DNA of 64,000 bases from Firmicutes bacterium CAG:582 (GTDB taxonomy: Bacteria; Bacillota_I; Bacilli_A; RF39; UBA660): contig FR884179.1 of assembly GCA_000435515.1 (NCBI GenBank), positions 2,780 to 66,779 on the forward strand. The letters are read 5' to 3'. This document shows, piece by piece, positions 4,902 to 47,610 of this stretch. How positions within the stretch are numbered: position 1 is the first letter of the stretch; the number at the start of each line of letters is the position of its first letter. Under the pieces are notes generated by a model. That model saw only the letters and a program-made list of their open reading frames with translations, was not told the DNA's origin and made no database searches. The position numbers were made by a program, and so were the translations under genes.

Positions 4902-6308
4902 TTAAGCATATTTCTTAATGTTTTCACTTGCTCTTTTTACATCTTTTTCATATGGAATCATTACATATCTTTTCTTGCTAGGTGCTGTATAAGTATTCAT
5001 TGATGCATCTGATCCAGATACACTTTGTCTTTCTATTTTATAAGCACTCATATCTTCAAGTTGATTCTTTACCATTAATGATATAAGACTACTTGGAATA
5101 TTAGTTTTATACAATTTACTTAAAGATGACAACGTTTTATCATACTTTAAAAGAATTGATTTATCAGTTGTAATTTTAGAAATGACAGCTTCTAATACTT
5201 GTTGTTGATTCAAAATTCGATGTCTATCTCCTAAAGCATATGCATGTCTTTCACGAGCATAACTTAGTGCCTCACCACCACTAAAATGATTCATCCCTTT
5301 TTTTACATTTGTTTTTATAGCTCCACCATCACCACAATAAGTTGTAAAAGCTTTATCACTTTCAATATCAATTCCACCAAGTAAATCAACTACCTCTACA
5401 ACTGATGAAAAACCAACTTTAATATAATAATCAATCTTAATATCAAACAAGTTTTCAACAGTTTTAACACTTGTATCTATACCATAAATACCTGCATGCG
5501 TAAGTTTATCTTTTAAACCAGTTTTACCATATACTGATACATAATAATCTCTTGGAATACTTGTTAAAAGTACTTTTTTATTTTTAGGATCTACACTTAT
5601 AATCATATTTACATCACTTCTAGTTTTACTAGCAATATAATTACTACGTGCATCACTTCCCGATAAGAAAATATTAAATGGCTTAAGTTCATCCACTAAA
5701 TTATCTTTTTTTACATTCTTTTTTATTTCAACATTAAAACTATATATTATATTAACTTTACTTTCATCAATTTCTTTTTCGTCAACAAGCATATTATAAT
5801 AAGTTTTATCAAGTAGCATTGAATTTACTTTATTATCTAAAAAATCATGAGCCAAAGAATACATGTCATCATAAGCGTTTTCACTTGCATTTACTCGTTT
5901 TTTTAATTCTTTTAAAGTCTCATCTGAATTTTCTTCATTTAGATATCCAAAATTTTTAATTGAACTTAAATCATAATTACTATCTTTTAAAACATAAACA
6001 CCATATTCACTTATTTCTACAGAATCATTATTAAAAGCATGACGCAGATAATCAATTGTTTCATTTCCATAATAATAACCAATTAAAGAAATAATAATTG
6101 TTATTATACTTATTACAAGACCAATTATATTAAGCCACTTTTTCTTTGTATATAAAAGTAAACTAATAAGATTAAATATAATTATAACACTTATAAATAT
6201 AATAAAATATTTATTTGGTAACATATTTAGACCTTTAATTGTAACTATACAAACAATTGATAATATAATGGTTAAAATACTAAGAACAATTTTTAATATA
6301 TTTTTCAT
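4902..6308 (-). CDS. LytR-CpsA-Psr (LCP) family cell-wall glycopolymer ligase
   Basis: N-terminal TM segments followed by an LCP core: ...RSDVNMIISVDPKNKKVLLTSIPRDYYV...LTHAGIYG...ALSYARERHAYALGDRHRILNQQQVL. Confidence 0.85.
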   Translation of the reverse strand: MKNILKIVLSILTIILSIVCIVTIKGLNMLPNKYFIIFISVIIIFNLISLLLYTKKKWLNIIGLVISIITIIISLIGYYYGNETIDYLRHAFNNDSVEISEYGVYVLKDSNYDLSSIKNFGYLNEENSDETLKELKKRVNASENAYDDMYSLAHDFLDNKVNSMLLDKTYYNMLVDEKEIDESKVNIIYSFNVEIKKNVKKDNLVDELKPFNIFLSGSDARSNYIASKTRSDVNMIISVDPKNKKVLLTSIPRDYYVSVYGKTGLKDKLTHAGIYGIDTSVKTVENLFDIKIDYYIKVGFSSVVEVVDLLGGIDIESDKAFTTYCGDGGAIKTNVKKGMNHFSGGEALSYARERHAYALGDRHRILNQQQVLEAVISKITTDKSILLKYDKTLSSLSKLYKTNIPSSLISLMVKNQLEDMSAYKIERQSVSGSDASMNTYTAPSKKRYVMIPYEKDVKRASENIKKYA

Positions 6309-6385
6309 AACATTCCCTCACATCGAGGCGTATTATAGCAAATTTTAAGTGCATTTGCAAGTTTCAACACATGCGAACAAACGTA

Positions 6386-6414
6386 TTGATTGTTTGTTGT
6401 TTTATTGTTATAAT
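6386..6414 (+). promoter_or_regulatory. sigma-A-type promoter of small-ORF module 1
   Basis: TTGATT, 17-nt spacer, TGtTATAAT (extended -10). Predicted start is ~6421, at GGAACAU. Confidence 0.55.
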
Positions 6415-6478
6415 TTATTTGGAACATCAGTTGTTGAGTGTCTGCCTCTAATCTTTATAGAGAGGAGGTTTGAGAGAT

Positions 6479-6571
6479 TTGAAAAAACGCGAATACTATA
6501 TAAAACTACTTCGTTACATATCACTCATTTTACTACTCTTAACCTTATTGGTTTTAGTAATAAAAAAATAG
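6479..6571 (+). CDS. 30-aa hydrophobic peptide, candidate type I toxin (module 1)
   Basis: GGAGG at 6464-6468, then a TTG start 10 nt downstream. Translation: (M)KKREYYIKLLRYISLILLLLTLLVLVIKK, stop TAG at 6569-6571. Different frame from track ORF 6349..6579. A paralogous module lies at 38404-38715. Confidence 0.5.
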   Translation: MKKREYYIKLLRYISLILLLLTLLVLVIKK

Positions 6572-6649
6572 ACACTTAATTCAAAAGAATTAAATGTCAC
6601 CACTAAAATAACGGGTAGACATTCAACATACCAAAACTGAATGTTCCCT
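6563..6649 (-). ncRNA. candidate ~85-nt antisense RNA convergent with the small ORF (module 1)
   Basis: Minus-strand TACAAT box at 6656-6661. Terminator GACAUUUAAUUC-UUUU-GAAUUAAGUGUC plus a U-run ends near 6563. Fully complementary to the ORF stop and 3' UTR. Ends are predicted only. Confidence 0.45.
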
Positions 6650-6714
6650 TTTTTTATTGTATGCAAATTTTCTTGCTAAATACATTTTACCATATTTTTA
6701 AATTGTTTTCTAGA

Positions 6715-7260
6715 CTAATTTATAGTATTTATTATGTCATTTGCAACAGTTTCAATTTTATCACTATAGTTTAGAATATCTGGATAATTTAAACAATTAT
6801 CAAAAAATGCTTTATATACCAGTTTTCCTTCTGCACTTTCAATAAATGATCCAAGTGATGTCAAAGCACCATCAGTTGAATATTCATTTCTAGATTTTGA
6901 ACCTATAACTAAAACTACCATTTTTTTATCTTTTAATTTTTTCTCACTATAAAGAGGATTTAACCTATCAATAAATATTTTTAAGTCACCTGATAAAGTA
7001 TTCCATCTCGTTGGTGTAATAAAAAGTAACACTTCTGCATTATTAACTTTATCAATATTTACTTTCATATCATCATTAAAATCACATACACCATTTTTAT
7101 CACAATCCATACATCCAGTACACAAATATATTTTTTGATTTCCTGGCACTATAATATCACTTGATATTCTATTTTTATCAAAAATGGATTTTAAACTATT
7201 AGCTAAATGAATTGAATTACCTTCTCTTCTTGAACCAACTATCATTAATATTCTAGACAT
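6715..7260 (-). CDS. flavodoxin-like NAD(P)H-dependent FMN reductase / iron-sulfur flavoprotein-like protein
   Basis: MSRILMIVGSRREGNS... flavodoxin-like N-terminus plus the Cys cluster LCTGCMDCDKNGVC. Confidence 0.6.
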   Translation of the reverse strand: MSRILMIVGSRREGNSIHLANSLKSIFDKNRISSDIIVPGNQKIYLCTGCMDCDKNGVCDFNDDMKVNIDKVNNAEVLLFITPTRWNTLSGDLKIFIDRLNPLYSEKKLKDKKMVVLVIGSKSRNEYSTDGALTSLGSFIESAEGKLVYKAFFDNCLNYPDILNYSDKIETVANDIINTIN

Positions 7261-7298
7261 ATTATCACCTAGAATTATTGTGTGATTAGTTCACATTT

Positions 7299-8339
7299 TT
7301 ATACATCTATTTTTTCTCTCGAATTTAAATATTTTTTGTCCTTATAACTTATAATTCCTAAAAACGCAAGTCGTGTATAATAAAATGTTAATGGAATATA
7401 ATTTTCTGAACAAAAATTAACTATTTCATTTTCACTCATAGTTTGCATTTTTTGAAAATCACTTTCTGATATCATACAATCTAACGCAAATCTATCTTGA
7501 CTATCCTCGTTTTCCTTATCATCCACAACTATCTTATTTTTCAATTTATTAAAATCTGTTTTAATGTGACCAAGTTCATGATACAAAGTAAAATATAATG
7601 ATGATTTTTCTTTAAACATTCTAGAAATGAATATACACGGATTATTCTTTTTAACCATTGAACAACCGCGAATCTTTGTTCCGGGTAAAGTGTCTTCGAT
7701 AATTAAATAAATTCCATACTTTCTAAATAAATTTTTAAGTAAATCTTCATCAAATTTTTGGAATCTTATTTTTTTTAATTCTTGTAACAAATCACCAATT
7801 TTTGATGAATTATATTCACCAATTTCCATATTTTGTTCAAGAATATTTTCACATCTTCTAATCCATAAATATGTTTTTAAATTATTTGCATTCTCACGCT
7901 TTTTAAATAAAACTTTACTATTAATATAAGGTAACACTTTATCAAAAGAATCGACATGTAGAAATTGTAATAAATCATAAGCATTTTGAAGATATGAAGT
8001 TTTATCTCTTAATACAATCCACTTATTCTTATAAAGATCATTTATATAAAAACTATCCAAATATTTTTTTATTTCCTTATCACCTTTAAAGCGGTCATGT
8101 AAATATATATCCAGTTTTTTAGAGTTTTCACAAAAGAAAATTAAATTAACGTCAATGTCCGTTATTAGAGAAATTGCTATCATTAATTCTAAAGATATAT
8201 ACGACTTATCATTTAATATTTCATTTAAATGCTTTTTAGAAATTCCAAGTCTTAATGCAAAATCAGTTTGGTTTATCTTATAATAATCCAAATAATCTTT
8301 TAACATTGGACCAAATCCTTGTTGTACTTTTCTTTCCAT
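7299..8339 (-). CDS. fused XRE-family HTH / ImmA-IrrE (M78) zinc-metallopeptidase protein; putative antitoxin or regulator
   Basis: N-terminal HTH (INQTDFALRLGISKKHLNEILNDK). HExxH site in YFTLYHELGHIKTD near residue 255. Begins 8 nt after the toxin-like gene ends. Confidence 0.7.
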   Translation of the reverse strand: MERKVQQGFGPMLKDYLDYYKINQTDFALRLGISKKHLNEILNDKSYISLELMIAISLITDIDVNLIFFCENSKKLDIYLHDRFKGDKEIKKYLDSFYINDLYKNKWIVLRDKTSYLQNAYDLLQFLHVDSFDKVLPYINSKVLFKKRENANNLKTYLWIRRCENILEQNMEIGEYNSSKIGDLLQELKKIRFQKFDEDLLKNLFRKYGIYLIIEDTLPGTKIRGCSMVKKNNPCIFISRMFKEKSSLYFTLYHELGHIKTDFNKLKNKIVVDDKENEDSQDRFALDCMISESDFQKMQTMSENEIVNFCSENYIPLTFYYTRLAFLGIISYKDKKYLNSREKIDV

Positions 8340-8347
8340 ATAATCAC

Positions 8348-8668
8348 CTACCCATCATTATAATGATTTAAATTTATTTCACTTAATTCTACTTCTACAA
8401 TATATACAAGATCTAAATTTTCATTTGCTGGTCTTATAAACAATCTTATTTTTTCATTTATTCTAGCTGTATAAAAAGATTTTAAATTACCACTTTTTTT
8501 CTCTATATGAAATATCTTGCTATAAGGATTATCAAGAAGCTCTCTCATATTACCTACAAGTTTTAAATACATTATAATTCTTTCAAGAGTTTCTATCTCT
8601 TTCTTCATATGCTTATTTAAAAGTTTTTTATAATCTCTTTTATATTTAGATGTATAATTTACTATCAT
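8348..8668 (-). CDS. RelE/ParE-superfamily toxin-like protein (HigB/YafQ-like)
   Basis: 106 aa. The N-terminus IVNYTSKYKRDYKKLLNKH resembles the RelE/YafQ beta1-alpha1 region; C-terminal ...INLNHYNDG. Toxin-first gene order, as in higBA. Confidence 0.55.
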   Translation of the reverse strand: MIVNYTSKYKRDYKKLLNKHMKKEIETLERIIMYLKLVGNMRELLDNPYSKIFHIEKKSGNLKSFYTARINEKIRLFIRPANENLDLVYIVEVELSEINLNHYNDG

Positions 8669-8867: not shown

Positions 8868-10400
8868 CTATTTTCTCTTTTTTAATCCTTTCAACATATT
8901 TATAAAATATTTAAAGTTTTCATCTTTTGAAAACAATAATAACATAATTACATTTGGAACGATTAAAGCAATTAATACATTACTTATGAATTGAAGATAA
9001 ACATTATCAAAACTTATTAATATAGCTAATGAATAAGTAAATCCTGCTATAAGAATAAATATTATAAAATAATAGATTGTCTCTTTAATATAATCAGAAA
9101 TTTTTCTTCCGAAAAGTTTATTATAAACATATTTCGGATAGCTATAGCACCATAAAACTAATCCACTTGCAATTGTTCCCATAAACACTCCCATAAGTCC
9201 AAATTTTTTAACAAATATAATTGATAAAACTATATTTAATAAAGATTCAATTATAGGAACAAAACGATCCTCATAAAATATACCTGCTGCTTCTTTAAAA
9301 GCTCCATATGTTGAACGTGATGAAACAATAAAGAAGTTAATTACCAAAACTAATAATACTTTTGTAGGTAAAACAAATTTATAACCTATCCAAATAGTTA
9401 TAAAACTATCCATTATCACAAATATACAAATCGATGAAAAACATGATATCCAGAAGTTAACAAAACGAATTTTATTAAAAATATCAAAGTGTTTTGTTTT
9501 TGATTCGGTTACAAGCAAATTACCAACACTAGCTCTTGTAGCTTGAATAATATGATTTATTACAGTTTGAACAGCATTAATAATCATATAATAATTAGAA
9601 TATAAACCAACAGTTACTAATCCTAAGTACTTAGAGATGATAATATTATCCGTTCCTGATACAATAAAAGTTCCTATTTTGTGAAAAAACAAAGCTTTAA
9701 TTTTTTGAAATATATCTTTTTCAGTTTTACTATCTAACTTTGTAACATTATTATCTAAAAGATAACTATATCTTCTATTAACATAAGAAGATATAACAAT
9801 ATTTTCAACTAAACGCATCATTACTTTTATTATTAAATATAAATAATAATCATGAGTAAAGTAAAGGAATGTAAGTTGCATTGTATTAACTAGTATTGTA
9901 TATCCCATATGAATTATATTTGTTATATACTCTTTTTGATCTGCATATAACATACTTCTCTTATAAGATAAAATATACGAGCAAATAGTTTCAAGCAAGA
10001 AAAGAATATAAACTAAATATACATTAATACCTACTGTAACACTTTCGATATCAACAATATATTTAATGAAAGGTATAATCATAATGCCTATAATTGAAAT
10101 TATTAATGTAATAATTCGATAACTTTTTTTATAAAATTGCATCAATGATTTAATTTTTTCATGGTTCTCCTCTGCAATTGGTTTATACATATTATAAATT
10201 ATCGCTGAACCCATACCCAGTTCAACAATACCAAGCATGGATATTACATTAGAAAAAAGACCATTTAATCCTAAATATTCAGATCCTAATATTTTAATAA
10301 AAACCGCTTGAGCAACAAGTCCAACTATAATCGTTAAAACATTTGAACTAACTGCAGTAATCATATTCTTAAAAGAACTTTTTTTACGTTCACTTTTCAT
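8868..10400 (-). CDS. wzx: polysaccharide/oligosaccharide flippase (Wzx, MOP superfamily)
   Basis: 510 aa with ~12-14 TM helices. Typical Wzx N-terminus (KNMITAVSSNVLTIIVGLVAQAVFIKILGSEYLGLNGLF). Sits inside a glycosyltransferase cluster. Confidence 0.75.
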   Translation of the reverse strand: MKSERKKSSFKNMITAVSSNVLTIIVGLVAQAVFIKILGSEYLGLNGLFSNVISMLGIVELGMGSAIIYNMYKPIAEENHEKIKSLMQFYKKSYRIITLIISIIGIMIIPFIKYIVDIESVTVGINVYLVYILFLLETICSYILSYKRSMLYADQKEYITNIIHMGYTILVNTMQLTFLYFTHDYYLYLIIKVMMRLVENIVISSYVNRRYSYLLDNNVTKLDSKTEKDIFQKIKALFFHKIGTFIVSGTDNIIISKYLGLVTVGLYSNYYMIINAVQTVINHIIQATRASVGNLLVTESKTKHFDIFNKIRFVNFWISCFSSICIFVIMDSFITIWIGYKFVLPTKVLLVLVINFFIVSSRSTYGAFKEAAGIFYEDRFVPIIESLLNIVLSIIFVKKFGLMGVFMGTIASGLVLWCYSYPKYVYNKLFGRKISDYIKETIYYFIIFILIAGFTYSLAILISFDNVYLQFISNVLIALIVPNVIMLLLFSKDENFKYFINMLKGLKKRK

Positions 10401-16456: not shown

Positions 16457-16480
16457 AAAAAAAAGAGGAAAATTCCTCTT
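16457..16480 (-). terminator. rho-independent terminator after the yjcZ-like pair
   Basis: Minus strand: AGAGGAA-UU-UUCCUCU followed by U8, overlapping the stop codon of the 38-aa ORF. Confidence 0.65.
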
Positions 16481-16595
16481 AATATGCATATATTGAACTA
16501 ACAATAATAGCAAGTAGAATAAATAATACAAGAATGATGAAGAATGTATTACCATAACCTTGATTATTTATTGAGGGTTTAGTATTACAATTCAT
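16479..16595 (-). CDS. YjcZ-family tiny sporulation membrane protein (38 aa)
   Basis: Absent from the ORF track. AGGAGGTG SD, then MNCNTKPSINNQGYGNTFFIILVLFILLAIIVSSIYAY. The VLFILL core is typical of the YjcZ family. Confidence 0.7.
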   Translation of the reverse strand: MNCNTKPSINNQGYGNTFFIILVLFILLAIIVSSIYAY

Positions 16596-16612: not shown

Positions 16613-16705
16613 TTAGATAAATGCTCCTACTATGATAATTAATAAAATAAATAGAACTAATATGAAAGCAGCACCAGAAATATTATTATTGCAACATTTA
16701 TTCAT
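16613..16705 (-). CDS. YjcZ-family tiny sporulation membrane protein (30 aa)
   Basis: Absent from the ORF track. GGAGGGAG SD, then MNKCCNNNISGAAFILVLFILLIIIVGAFI, with the FxLxVLFILLIIVG core of the YjcZ family. Confidence 0.7.
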   Translation of the reverse strand: MNKCCNNNISGAAFILVLFILLIIIVGAFI

Positions 16706-38193: not shown

Positions 38194-38403
38194 ACATTCA
38201 CCTCATATCCTATAGAAATTATATCAAAAAACAAATAAAAATAATAGAATTAACTATATCAGTTTTAAAATTTAAATATAAACGCCCTTATTTATAAAAT
38301 TATAATTCTATATAAAAATAGAACTCATTTTCTATTGAGTTCTCATTTAATATTAACTTTGTAAAAAAAAGTATATATCAATAAATAAAAAAACAATTAG
38401 CTA

Positions 38404-38432
38404 TTGCATATAAAACAAATGTTTGATATTTT
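38404..38432 (+). promoter_or_regulatory. sigma-A-type promoter of small-ORF module 2
   Basis: TTGCAT, 17-nt spacer, TGaTATTTT (extended -10). Predicted start ~38440, at GGAACAU as in module 1. Confidence 0.5.
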
Positions 38433-38494
38433 ATTTATAGGAACATTTAATAGTTGGGTGATTTGCCAAACTTCAAAAGAAGGGAGGCGATATT

Positions 38495-38578
38495 ATGAGC
38501 AAGAAAGACTTTTTAATCTTATCTTTAATCATTATTATCTTCCTATTAGTATCTTTGTTATACATAGTACTAATATAG
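38495..38578 (+). CDS. 27-aa hydrophobic peptide, candidate type I toxin (module 2)
   Basis: GGGAGG at 38482-38487, 7-nt spacer, then ATG. Translation: MSKKDFLILSLIIIIFLLVSLLYIVLI, stop TAG at 38576-38578. Different frame from track ORF 38404..38598. Confidence 0.55.
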   Translation: MSKKDFLILSLIIIIFLLVSLLYIVLI

Positions 38579-38581
38579 AAA

Positions 38582-38669
38582 TAAAAAAAATCACCTAACT
38601 CAGCAATGATTTAGGTGATTGCTAAAATATTACTAGGCAACACTCAACATGCGAATATTAAATGTTCCT
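38582..38669 (-). ncRNA. candidate ~85-nt antisense RNA convergent with the small ORF (module 2)
   Basis: Minus-strand TACAAT at 38676-38681. Terminator AAUCACCUAA-N12-UUAGGUGAUU plus U8-9 ends near 38582. Same layout and length as module 1. Confidence 0.45.
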
Positions 38670-38714
38670 CTTTTTATTGTATGCAAGTCTTTCTTGCTAA
38701 ATACATTTTACCAT

Positions 38715-38756
38715 AAAAAAAGTATTCATACAAGTTCAACGAATACTCTTTTTTTT
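38715..38756. terminator. bidirectional terminator after the AI-2E transporter gene
   Basis: AGUAUUC-N13-GAAUACU, flanked by A7 and U8 runs. Confidence 0.6.
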
Positions 38757-38760
38757 ACTT

Positions 38761-42927: not shown

Positions 42928-43889
42928 AAAAACTAATTATTTTAATTCTAAGTATATTTTTTTTAACAGGATGTGCAAATTATCATGAACTAAATGATCT
43001 TGGAATTGTTTCCTCTATATTAGTAGACTATAAAGACAATCTTTTTTATACAACAATTGAAGTTATTGATGAAGAAGAATTTAAGACCTACTCTGGAATT
43101 GGAAATTCTTTAACAAATGCTTTAAATAACACTTTAATTGGTTCAAGCAAATATCTTTATTATGCTCATTTAAATGCTCTTATTTTAACAAACAATGTAC
43201 CAATTGAAACTACATTAGATTATTTTTTAAGAAGTCCTGAAACCAACAATACATTCTATCTTTGTATTACTGAAAAAACAGATATATATGATCAAGATAA
43301 AAATATGGGAGAAACATTAAAAAACATTTTAGAAAGAGTTTATAAAGATAACTTCTTTGATACAATAAAAAAACTAAAAGATAAAAACACTGACTTTGTA
43401 TTACCAATATTAGATGAAGACCTAAAAGTCAGTAAATTAAATCTATATAAAGGTAATAAAATGGTTACAACTCTAAATAATAATGAACTTAATACTTTAA
43501 AGTTGCTTTTTGGCTATGAAGAACTTTATATAAAAAATGGTAAAGATGATTACATTGAATTAAGTGTAAATAAAATTGATAAGAAAATTGATATAAAAGA
43601 AAAAATAAAAATAAGTTTAGATTTAGAAACAACAGTAAGGCAAATTACAACTGGCGAAGAAGCAAATAATATAAAAGACGTAAAAAAAATACAGAAAAGA
43701 TATAATAAAGAAATAGAAAATAATATTTATGAATTAATAGATAAATTAAAAACCTATCAAGTAGATGTTTTAGGAATAAACAATATGTTATTAAACAAAT
43801 TTCATAATATGGACAAACATTTCTATGATTATGATTTTGATATTGAAGTAAATACTCATATTAATAAGAAAGGACTTCTAATAAAATGA
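42924..43889 (+). CDS. spore germination receptor C subunit lipoprotein (Ger(x)C family)
   Basis: Lipobox FLTGCANYHELNDLGIV, typical of the GerAC/GerKC N-terminus. Overlaps both neighbours by 4 nt. Confidence 0.8.
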   Translation: MKKLIILILSIFFLTGCANYHELNDLGIVSSILVDYKDNLFYTTIEVIDEEEFKTYSGIGNSLTNALNNTLIGSSKYLYYAHLNALILTNNVPIETTLDYFLRSPETNNTFYLCITEKTDIYDQDKNMGETLKNILERVYKDNFFDTIKKLKDKNTDFVLPILDEDLKVSKLNLYKGNKMVTTLNNNELNTLKLLFGYEELYIKNGKDDYIELSVNKIDKKIDIKEKIKISLDLETTVRQITTGEEANNIKDVKKIQKRYNKEIENNIYELIDKLKTYQVDVLGINNMLLNKFHNMDKHFYDYDFDIEVNTHINKKGLLIK

Positions 43890-47396: not shown

Positions 47397-47610
47397 ATAA
47401 AAAAGAGCAATAAGTCCAAAAAGGACGAATTGCTCGCGGTACCACCTTTATTCGTAATAATAGTTTATTACCTCTTCTTGATAACGGAAAAATCCGATTA
47501 AAATCATCATCTGTAATTCATTATTATAAAATTACTTGTTTACACCACCCACAAGCTCTCTATTTAACTCTTAAAATAACTACTTTAAATGAATCGCTTT
47601 TTAATTAACC
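47397..47610 (-). promoter_or_regulatory. T-box riboswitch leader (Tyr/UAC specifier) with terminator
   Basis: Minus strand: T-box AAAGGUGGUACCGCGAG (47433-47449). Terminator GAGCAAU...AUUGCUC plus a U-run. AGAGA box and distal loop CUUGU-GGGUGGUGUAA-ACAAG. GAAU-UAC-A at 47513-47515. Promoter TTGACT-17-TATATT at 47617-47645. Confidence 0.85.

Follow-up and report, generated by a model that had tools for sequence, protein, structure and literature searches.

A probable type I toxin-antitoxin-like module, previously unnamed and present in two copies in a genome stretch of Firmicutes bacterium CAG:582

Type I toxin mRNAs are short, at 150–400 nucleotides (nt), and encode a hydrophobic, membrane-directed peptide of under 60 amino acids (aa); the known systems of the TxpA/BsrG type are found mostly in prophages or in the skin element. 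Here we analysed a candidate locus of this class in a stretch of 64,000 nt of contig FR884179.1 from Firmicutes bacterium CAG:582 (hereafter the window; G+C content 26%). The locus occupies a 406-bp gap with an LCP gene (4902–6308, minus strand) on one side and a flavoprotein gene (6715–7260, minus strand; FMN-reductase or flavodoxin-like) on the other. The gap probably hosts one copy, module 1, of a previously unnamed type I toxin-antitoxin-like module, of which a second copy, module 2, is found at 38404–38733. Comparison of the copies makes it very likely that the conserved module consists of a peptide mRNA and an antisense RNA, and reasonably likely that the two form a true toxin-antitoxin pair. 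In contrast to the TxpA/BsrG-type systems, both modules are surrounded by core genes.

For Gram-positive type I systems, T1TAdb records antisense RNAs on the 3' side that overlap the end of the open reading frame (ORF), pairing of the Shine-Dalgarno sequence (SD) with an anti-SD, and a 5'-3' long-distance interaction (PMC8594479). Antisense RNAs of the TxpA/RatA and BsrG/SR4 type cover ~75–125 nt at the 3' end of the mRNA, the ORF end included (PMC8594479; PMC8167048), and an RNase III-cleavable duplex together with mRNA decay has been described for both systems (PMC8167048). The full-length mRNAs of Hok and AapA1 are closed by a 5'-3' interaction that renders them stable and inert, and local metastable anti-SD structures are found as well (PMC8167048; PMC8594479).

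The modules share with TxpA/RatA, BsrG/SR4, BsrE/SR5, BsrH and YonT/SR6 of Bacillus subtilis and with SprG/SprF of Staphylococcus aureus a convergent arrangement of two units with separate promoters and a 3' overlap, which here covers the mRNA 3' end and the ORF end over 85–97 nt. Unlike in layout, no similarity to these families was found by sequence, profile or covariance model, and no sequence or profile relation links the module to Fst or SprA1. BsrG has its SD within a paired stretch, and binding of the antitoxin at the 3' end affects it. TxpA/BsrG-type families are not known to be characterised by an end-to-end helix of 21–27 bp with its 3' strand as the antisense target, such as is predicted here.

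A long-distance 5'-3' interaction is the only feature of mechanism tested that is shared with Hok/Sok of plasmid R1 and AapA1/IsoA1 of Helicobacter pylori, Gram-negative systems without sequence relation to the module; AapA1 is also 30 aa long, as is the module peptide. There, 3' processing first takes away the closing element and the antisense RNA then binds the 5' region, whereas here it covers the 3' closing element itself. Moreover, the SD is hidden there by the long-distance interaction (AapA1) or through refolding that it enforces (Hok), whereas in the modules a separate local hairpin is responsible. The 5' targeting and long-distance control of the SD that mark the Hok/AapA type were thus not found, as the antisense RNA lies at the 3' end and the SD is paired with or without the closure. 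Fst/RNAII (par, Enterococcus) and SprA1/SprA1as resemble the module in having a peptide of ~30–33 aa with one transmembrane helix, convergent RNAs, a shared terminator region and a 5' structure that limits translation. Their functional pairing is located outside the 3' overlap, at 5' repeats or at the translation start. Action of this kind was rejected for the module: duplex energies between the non-overlapping 5' part of the antisense RNA and the first 75 nt of the mRNA equalled those of shuffled controls, and no Fst match was obtained in Pfam or NCBIfam.

Searches for known families gave the same picture. Rfam at gathering thresholds returned nothing relevant to the modules in the whole window, and at E values up to 10 over both modules the BsrG model reached E = 2 (11.6 bits against a threshold of 55), with no other model near its threshold. 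No related family was found for the peptides in Pfam and NCBIfam at E up to 10, and PADLOC gave no match to them. The original prediction, an earlier reading of the same DNA, had not recognised the peptide as Fst, TxpA, BsrG or another named family; the sequence features it listed were all confirmed at the positions given. The best reading is that of a layout like TxpA/RatA or BsrG/SR4 combined with an end-to-end helix like that of Hok or AapA. The combination of known regulatory features is unusual within the well-known type I class, and on the sequence comparisons the module is filed here as a new family of that class and a member of no named family.

Predicted peptide, mRNA and antisense RNA of module 1

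The plus-strand unit begins with a predicted sigma-A-type promoter at 6386–6414 (TTGATT, a 17-nt spacer and TGtTATAAT; predicted start G6421). It had been proposed in the original prediction and was recovered by a promoter scan of 6000–7400 as the joint best match (10/12). Only two of the 10/12 matches in this interval carried the TG extension, the other being the divergent promoter of the LCP gene. A promoter-like site was found in every relative of the module at an equal distance from GGAACA. The predicted peptide ('toxin') mRNA spans 6421–6655 on the plus strand, ~235 nt between predicted ends, and terminates in a U7 run at 6649–6655. Within it the SD GGAGG (6464–6468) is followed ten nt downstream by the TTG start of a 30-codon ORF (6479–6571, plus strand; TAG stop at 6569–6571) encoding (M)KKREYYIKLLRYISLILLLLTLLVLVIKK, both as the earlier reading had them. 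The start was placed at 6479 and not at the TTG at 6470 because orthologues have ATG at the position of 6479. A basic N-terminus and one hydrophobic helix mark the peptide, as they do that of module 2, and a KK tail follows in copies of the module 1 type; with peptides of 27–30 aa on an mRNA of ~235 nt the modules fall within the type I range of small hydrophobic peptides and short mRNAs. A 76-aa ORF that had been listed at 6349–6579 (plus strand) was confirmed to be in another frame; it was judged spurious because it begins upstream of the predicted promoter and its frame differs from that of the conserved peptide ORF.

Homologues of the peptide were sought with phmmer among 1.84 billion representatives, which gave four matches, and in each the peptide formed the C-terminus of an over-extended ORF. 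When a 52-aa homologue of this read-in type was set as the first row of the alignment, a profile search yielded 49 clusters at 90% identity with the consensus MKTKTFIIKVLKLIAIILLLSTLLVLAIKK. The majority are exactly 30 aa long and none bears a name other than 'hypothetical protein'. The longer members result from read-in of the 5' untranslated region (UTR), from loss of the stop codon or from JGI calls that take a TGA stop as Trp. Database 'proteins' P0241–P0244, P0247 and others are the peptide ORF over-extended by 5' UTR read-in, and reading TGA as Trp extends the 30-aa ORF in the JGI calls at 10001–10147 of L041/L042 and in P0268 and P0280–P0282. These latter calls look like genetic-code mis-assignments, judging by the sequences, since the same position is TAG or TAA elsewhere and the genes of the window are intact under code 11.

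The start codon is ATG in nearly all relatives, with GGAGG 9–10 nt upstream of it. Among ten DNA copies, dN/dS (Nei-Gojobori) ranged from 0.09 to 0.83 and was below 1 in all 45 ORF pairs, and substitutions preserved the basic N-terminus, the hydrophobic core and a KK or KN tail. On these comparisons the peptide ORF is under purifying selection and is conserved in length and hydrophobic pattern.

The predicted antisense ('antitoxin') RNA of module 1 runs from 6677 to 6562 on the minus strand (~116 nt) and comprises three stem-loops: SL1 (6676..6663), then, after an A-rich linker, SL2, complementary to the 3' arm of the mRNA described below, and SL3, the terminator. Its promoter P1 (6684..6712, minus strand) has a −35 box TAGAAA (6712..6707), a 17-nt spacer and a −10 box TGgTAAAAT (6692..6684), and overlaps the stop region of the flavoprotein gene. 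The intrinsic terminator (6562..6598, minus strand) consists of a hairpin at 6598..6571 and U7 at 6568..6562, and overlaps the stop codon of the ORF. It was the sole terminator-like site found in the region, where 0.3 were expected. The antisense RNA thereby has the promoter and terminator of its own that are typical of type I antitoxins, albeit in silico only.

An RNA of ~85 nt beginning from a TACAAT box had been proposed for this strand. The box (6656..6661, minus strand), the hairpin and U7 were all found; the start was moved to ~6677, giving ~116 nt, because a covarying hairpin sits downstream of P1. TGgTAAAAT at 6692..6684 is hence most likely the antisense promoter rather than TACAAT, as far as can be judged from the alignment. 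TACAAT lies inside the linker without a convincing −35 box and is conserved as a −10-like element, TATAAT or TAAAAT in relatives. It is possibly an alternative, second antisense start or a mere part of the linker. In one relative (L041) SL1 and the TACAAT-type box are both missing and the extended −10 box directly adjoins SL2.

When the minus strand was aligned for copies whose flanks are unrelated, the same elements appeared in the same order: promoter, SL1, A-rich linker with SL2, and terminator. The antisense promoters of relatives have TTGACA, TTGACT, TTGAAA or TTGTTA, a 17-nt spacer and TGnTAWWAT, and the stem of SL1 is kept by compensatory changes (GCAA/UUGC, GCAAG/CUUGC, GAAG/CUUC, GCAAA/UUUGC and UCAA/UUGA). 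The terminator abuts the stop codon, with a hairpin sequence that differs from copy to copy and a U-rich tail that is degenerate in a few of the copies examined. Each of the two convergent units retains a sigma-A-type promoter and a terminator of its own in unrelated genomic contexts. Antisense RNA and mRNA overlap by 85–97 nt across copies (~94 nt in module 1) with perfect complementarity, and the covered part of the mRNA takes in the last codons, the hairpin that follows the ORF and the entire 3' arm of the closure helix.

Predicted pairing between the mRNA ends, and the second copy

The original prediction held that the two ends of the mRNA pair over ~26 bp including two G-U pairs. In the minimum free energy (MFE) fold of 6421–6656, the first 27 nt (5' arm, 6421–6447, GGAACAUCAGUUGUUGAGUGUCUGCCU) were paired with 6613–6647 (3' arm) through 27 bp, three of them G-U, interrupted by one bulged A and an internal loop of 7 nt. 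The fold energy was −62.9 kcal/mol as compared to −35.4 ± 4.2 kcal/mol for dinucleotide shuffles (z = −6.6; −7.3 in a comparison of 11 copies). A 5'-3' closure of 21–27 bp was present in the own MFE fold of every one of the 11 distinct full-length copies (z between −5.6 and −9.5), formed by the first 21–28 nt of the mRNA and the last 30–35 nt ahead of the U-run. Homologues lacking the ORF or the long-range helix would have spoken against the locus as predicted; both were found to be conserved.

Per-sequence folds and a duplex test were used because MAFFT with RNAalifold on the full-length mRNAs mis-registered the paralogues and under-reported the closure helix. In the duplex test, energies were computed for each 5' arm against each 3' arm and cognate pairs were compared with non-cognate ones in 20000 permutations. 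Cognate arms gave a mean of −31.5 kcal/mol and non-cognate arms −24.3 kcal/mol, and the cognate mean was reached in none of the permutations. Co-variation of the two arms, together with the conserved ORF and the two transcription units, supports in silico the proposal of a type I toxin-antitoxin locus. Closure duplexes had energies of −27 to −38 kcal/mol. The 3' arm, which lies wholly within the antisense-covered region, can alternatively fold by itself into a local terminator hairpin that is weak and has a large loop (−6 to −13 kcal/mol across copies, −10.6 kcal/mol in module 1).

The closure had also been proposed to keep the mRNA inert. While the helix was recovered in all copies, a local anti-SD hairpin, and not the closure, appears in these models to be what chiefly hides the SD. 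The local stem of module 1 (6445–6468, plus strand) consists of the anti-SD CCUCU (6445–6449), a small hairpin and the SD GGAGG (6464–6468). Pairing of CCUCU with the SD, which had likewise been foreseen, had a probability of 0.5–0.6 in the full-length mRNA and of ~1.0 when the 3' region was removed or was masked in order to mimic bound antisense RNA. In two relatives (L001 and L002) the SD/anti-SD pair probability was 0.9–0.99, and copies of the module 1 type pair the SD with CCUCU or CCUCC 15 nt upstream. The mRNA is thus structured in silico against premature translation, by an SD/anti-SD pairing and by a 5'-3' interaction, as is characteristic of type I toxin mRNAs.

Complementarity was also observed between the 5' arm and the left arm of the hairpin that follows the ORF, at 6434–6443/6570–6579 in module 1 (GAGUGUC/GACACUC) and at 38452–38464/38588–38600 in module 2 (GGGUGAUU/AAUCACCU). 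This pairing could be an alternative, co-transcriptional closure; it was marginal in the cognate versus non-cognate test (1033 of 20000 permutations).

Module 2 was found by blastn of the 406-bp gap against the window, which aligned 6619–6694 with 38640–38715 at 87% identity. It is located in a 567-bp gap between an RlmN gene and an AI-2E transporter gene and has the layout of module 1. Its mRNA promoter (38404–38432, plus strand; TTGCAT, 17 nt, TATTTT) has a predicted start at G38440, and the predicted peptide mRNA (38440–38675, plus strand), with the 5' start GGAACAUUUAAUAG, contains the 5' arm (38440–38467), the SD GGGAGG (38482–38487) and the 3' arm (38636–38668). The ORF (38495–38578, plus strand) encodes the 27-aa peptide MSKKDFLILSLIIIIFLLVSLLYIVLI, which was found at the C-terminus of one database relative (P0289). 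The hairpin after the ORF is preceded by an A-run, i.e. a minus-strand terminator, and is followed by the 3' arm and the U-run. The predicted antisense RNA (38583..38698, minus strand; ~116 nt) ends in a terminator hairpin at 38620..38589 and a U8 run. Its promoter P1 (38705..38733, minus strand; TTGTAT, 17 nt, TGgTAAAAT) is downstream of the own terminator of the AI-2E gene (38722–38760), so this antisense RNA is not a mere 3' UTR.

The module 2 mRNA likewise folds with its 5' end closed onto its 3' end (z = −7.5; −8.3 in the 11-copy comparison), and a 14-nt perfect inverted repeat joins 38439–38452 with 38656–38669. Pairing is kept from one paralogue to the other in both parts of the closure: the outer helix changes from CAGU/ACUG to UUAAUA/UAUUAA and the inner helix from UGCCU/GGGUA to UUGCC/GGCAA. 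The two peptides are ~40% identical, and the DNA conserved best between the paralogues lies beyond the U-run of the mRNA, where it includes an invariant 26-nt block covering P1. The SD of module 2 pairs with CUUCC within the ORF. Its 3' arm has no local terminator hairpin (38630–38677; −2.9 kcal/mol, z ~0), leaving the long-range 5'-3' helix as the only stem ahead of the U-run; the next plus-strand terminator is at 38722–38760.

A second 14-nt perfect inverted repeat in module 2 joins 38498–38511 with 38685–38698, and codons 2–5 of the ORF (AGCAAGAAAGACTT) are complementary to the plus strand of the SL1 region beyond the U-run. Because of this complementarity the 5' hairpin of the antisense RNA has the same sequence as the translation start. 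A pairing of the start region with a read-through 3' extension of the mRNA was considered and rejected, as it was not in the MFE fold and is absent from copies of the module 1 type. Between module 2 and the RlmN promoter, a further minus-strand hairpin (AGAACTCA...TGAGTTCT, 38310–38353) with a T-rich tail behind it might keep read-through from reaching RlmN. An nhmmer search with a profile of 11 members found exactly two copies of the module in the window; a blastn match at 43373–43312 and weak tblastn matches were discarded as lying inside ordinary genes or looking like chance.

Relatives, proposed mechanism and rival readings

Further copies were located by scanning GTDB species genomes, metagenome contigs and IMG/VR for an exact 19–20-mer from the conserved antisense promoter block. 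The GTDB species genomes yielded only two loci, each in a gut genome labelled 'uncultured Bacilli' that derives from Hadza samples. The two loci occupy the LCP/flavoprotein gap as module 1 does and are its orthologues, with the ORF MKTKTFILRFLKFICIILLL[F/S]TLLVLAIKK, ATG where the window has TTG 6479, and CCUCC/GGAGG in the inner helix. The metagenome contigs contained five true matches, near-identical to modules 1 and 2, and eleven chance matches. No exact match was found in IMG/VR, and neither blastn against plasmid and phage collections nor a peptide-pattern scan of IMG/VR returned a copy of the module.

Genomic contexts were obtained from look-ups of six family peptides. Relatives were recovered from gut and rumen metagenomes in at least seven contexts. 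They include a position between PFOR and ABC-F genes (L029–L034), one after glycosyltransferase genes (L035–L038), one adjoining tRNA genes (L041), and one contig with two copies ~9 kb apart (L043). Three copies lie in tandem at 9635–10623 of L039, the first of which (L039a) has no ORF start. The copy at 6971–7290 of L040 has lost its stop codon, and a decayed copy at 5985–6240 of L035 is 5'-truncated, without an mRNA promoter or 5' arm of its own. L035 and L039a both retain the antisense promoter despite these losses, while L040, the one copy with a doubtful antisense promoter, carries a proline substitution in the basic N-terminal segment of its peptide (...IFKPKNL...). Judged from their sequences, these decayed copies fit toxin-antitoxin logic, and their retention of the antisense side is an indirect hint, the only one, that the peptide may be toxic.

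The modules are lodged between otherwise adjacent conserved genes. The spacing from AI-2E to RlmN is only 71–82 nt in relatives with 86% and 67% AI-2E identity, which marks module 2 as an insertion of several hundred nt specific to its lineage. No module adjoins the flavoprotein gene of a genome in which the encoded protein is 83% identical, and synteny walks from the flavoprotein and AI-2E genes found the modules absent at matching sites and no extra orthologues. RNase III is encoded in a related contig of the clade, and the clade is taken to be spore-forming because GerA and Spo0A genes are present.

On this basis the following course of events is proposed. A sigma-A-type promoter would drive a plus-strand mRNA of ~235 nt for a peptide of 30 residues, and the mRNA, closed and with its SD masked, would be stable and poorly translated. 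The antisense RNA would outcompete the imperfect 5' arm, with its G-U pairs, bulge and internal loop, for the 3' arm. The long duplex that results would be a substrate for RNase III, as suggested by the complementarity and by the presence of RNase III in the clade. The freed 5' end of the mRNA would then lead to decay as described for TxpA/RatA and BsrG/SR4; mRNA decay in Firmicutes depends on the 5' end (RNase J, RNase Y). If the antisense RNA were lost, the peptide would be made and inserted into the membrane, and cell arrest or death would follow, so that the module would be retained.

A tentative extension is that the module constitutes a three-way RNA strand-exchange device, of a kind not known from Gram-positive type I systems. 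A single 3' segment would serve in turn as terminator stem, as partner of the 5' end and as landing site of the antisense RNA, and SL2 of the latter would repeat the sequence of the mRNA 5' end. By displacing the 5' arm the antitoxin would uncap the mRNA for 5'-end-dependent decay, beyond providing a substrate for RNase III alone. Termination of the module 2 mRNA at its U-run would need the long-range helix itself, because its 3' arm has no local hairpin, and pairing of the 5' arm with the hairpin after the ORF would be a co-transcriptional intermediate. Such a device is a possible but less likely reading.

Several points weigh against the toxin-antitoxin reading in general. The RNA ends were all predicted on the basis of consensus motifs and folding, the covariation test is a custom one on ~11 sequences from a few lineages, and peptide and RNAs match no known toxin or antitoxin family, such that the assignment is made on architecture alone. 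The SD was sequestered in every modelled state (full-length, truncated and antisense-bound), so the models show no state in which translation would be activated. The antisense transcript of module 1 could also arise by read-through from the flavoprotein gene, with no need of a promoter of its own. Finally, the modules sit among housekeeping genes with no evident mobile element, and none was found in the plasmid, phage and viral collections.

Some of these points suit a different function, namely a non-toxic small membrane protein, such as a stress, sporulation or envelope micro-protein, that is tuned by a cis-antisense RNA and has no role in addiction or toxicity. Purifying selection on the peptide, the neighbouring core genes that serve the cell envelope and rRNA modification, the lack of a plasmid or phage link and a spore-forming lineage with other tiny membrane peptides (YjcZ family) would all be in line with it. 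A fixed locus would however be expected of such a protein, whereas the module is multi-copy, occurs in tandem, changes context, is absent from syntenic sites and has decayed copies. Silencing as heavy as this, through the closure helix, the anti-SD and an antisense RNA driven by a strong promoter, is moreover typical of toxic products. We consider this explanation unlikely.

Far less probable is that there is no independent antisense RNA, the hairpin and U7 being the terminator of the flavoprotein gene and the plus strand an ordinary small gene with a convergent 3' UTR overlap. The flavoprotein gene does end at 6715 with no terminator ahead of 6598. The AI-2E gene beside module 2, in contrast, has its own terminator (38722–38760) ahead of the promoter block, and the TGnTAWWAT promoter and covarying SL1 are kept in unrelated flanks, including near tRNAs and in tandem arrays. 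The 26-nt promoter block is also invariant between paralogues whose peptides are only ~40% identical. That the plus-strand RNA is a structured non-coding RNA or repeat element with an untranslated ORF is just as improbable: in its favour are a very strong signal of RNA structure, a predicted SD that is mostly base-paired and the TTG start of the module 1 ORF, but 30 codons are kept in most of the 49 clusters, with ATG nearly everywhere and GGAGG 9–10 nt upstream, and dN/dS is below 1 throughout with the N-terminus, core and KK-tail pattern preserved.

If the toxin-antitoxin reading is true, it adds a type I family confined, in these searches, to an uncultured spore-forming lineage of Bacilli from human and animal guts. 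With ~50 peptide variants, natural variation already delineates the functional RNA helices, and the module provides a compact test case for the handling of a 5'-3' closed mRNA in a Firmicute with 5'-end-dependent decay. Such modules can then enter between core genes without a recognisable mobile element. For metagenome catalogues, the analysis also draws attention to a gene pair that recurs without annotation and to several artefacts of gene calling (read-in ORFs and TGA taken as Trp).

Minor features of the window

A likely type II toxin-antitoxin or defence pair is located at 7299–8668 (minus strand), ~600 nt from module 1. Its first member is a 106-aa ORF that is RelE/YoeB-like according to weak NCBIfam matches. 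The second, of 346 aa, has helix-turn-helix and M78-peptidase domains with a HigA-like N-terminus, and matched PD-Lambda-2_B in PADLOC at 2e-20.

Two adjacent ORFs on the minus strand, at 16479–16595 and 16613–16705, encode hydrophobic peptides of only 38 and 30 aa. The 38-aa peptide matched the YjcZ sporulation-protein model TIGR01732 with 24.6 bits against a cut-off of 21.35, and the 30-aa peptide scored 12.9 bits with the same model, below the cut-off. The same pair of tiny peptides is present in a related contig (L019, 2695–2918). A T-box leader at 47418–47606 (minus strand; RF00230, 100 bits) was the sole match in the window at Rfam gathering thresholds.

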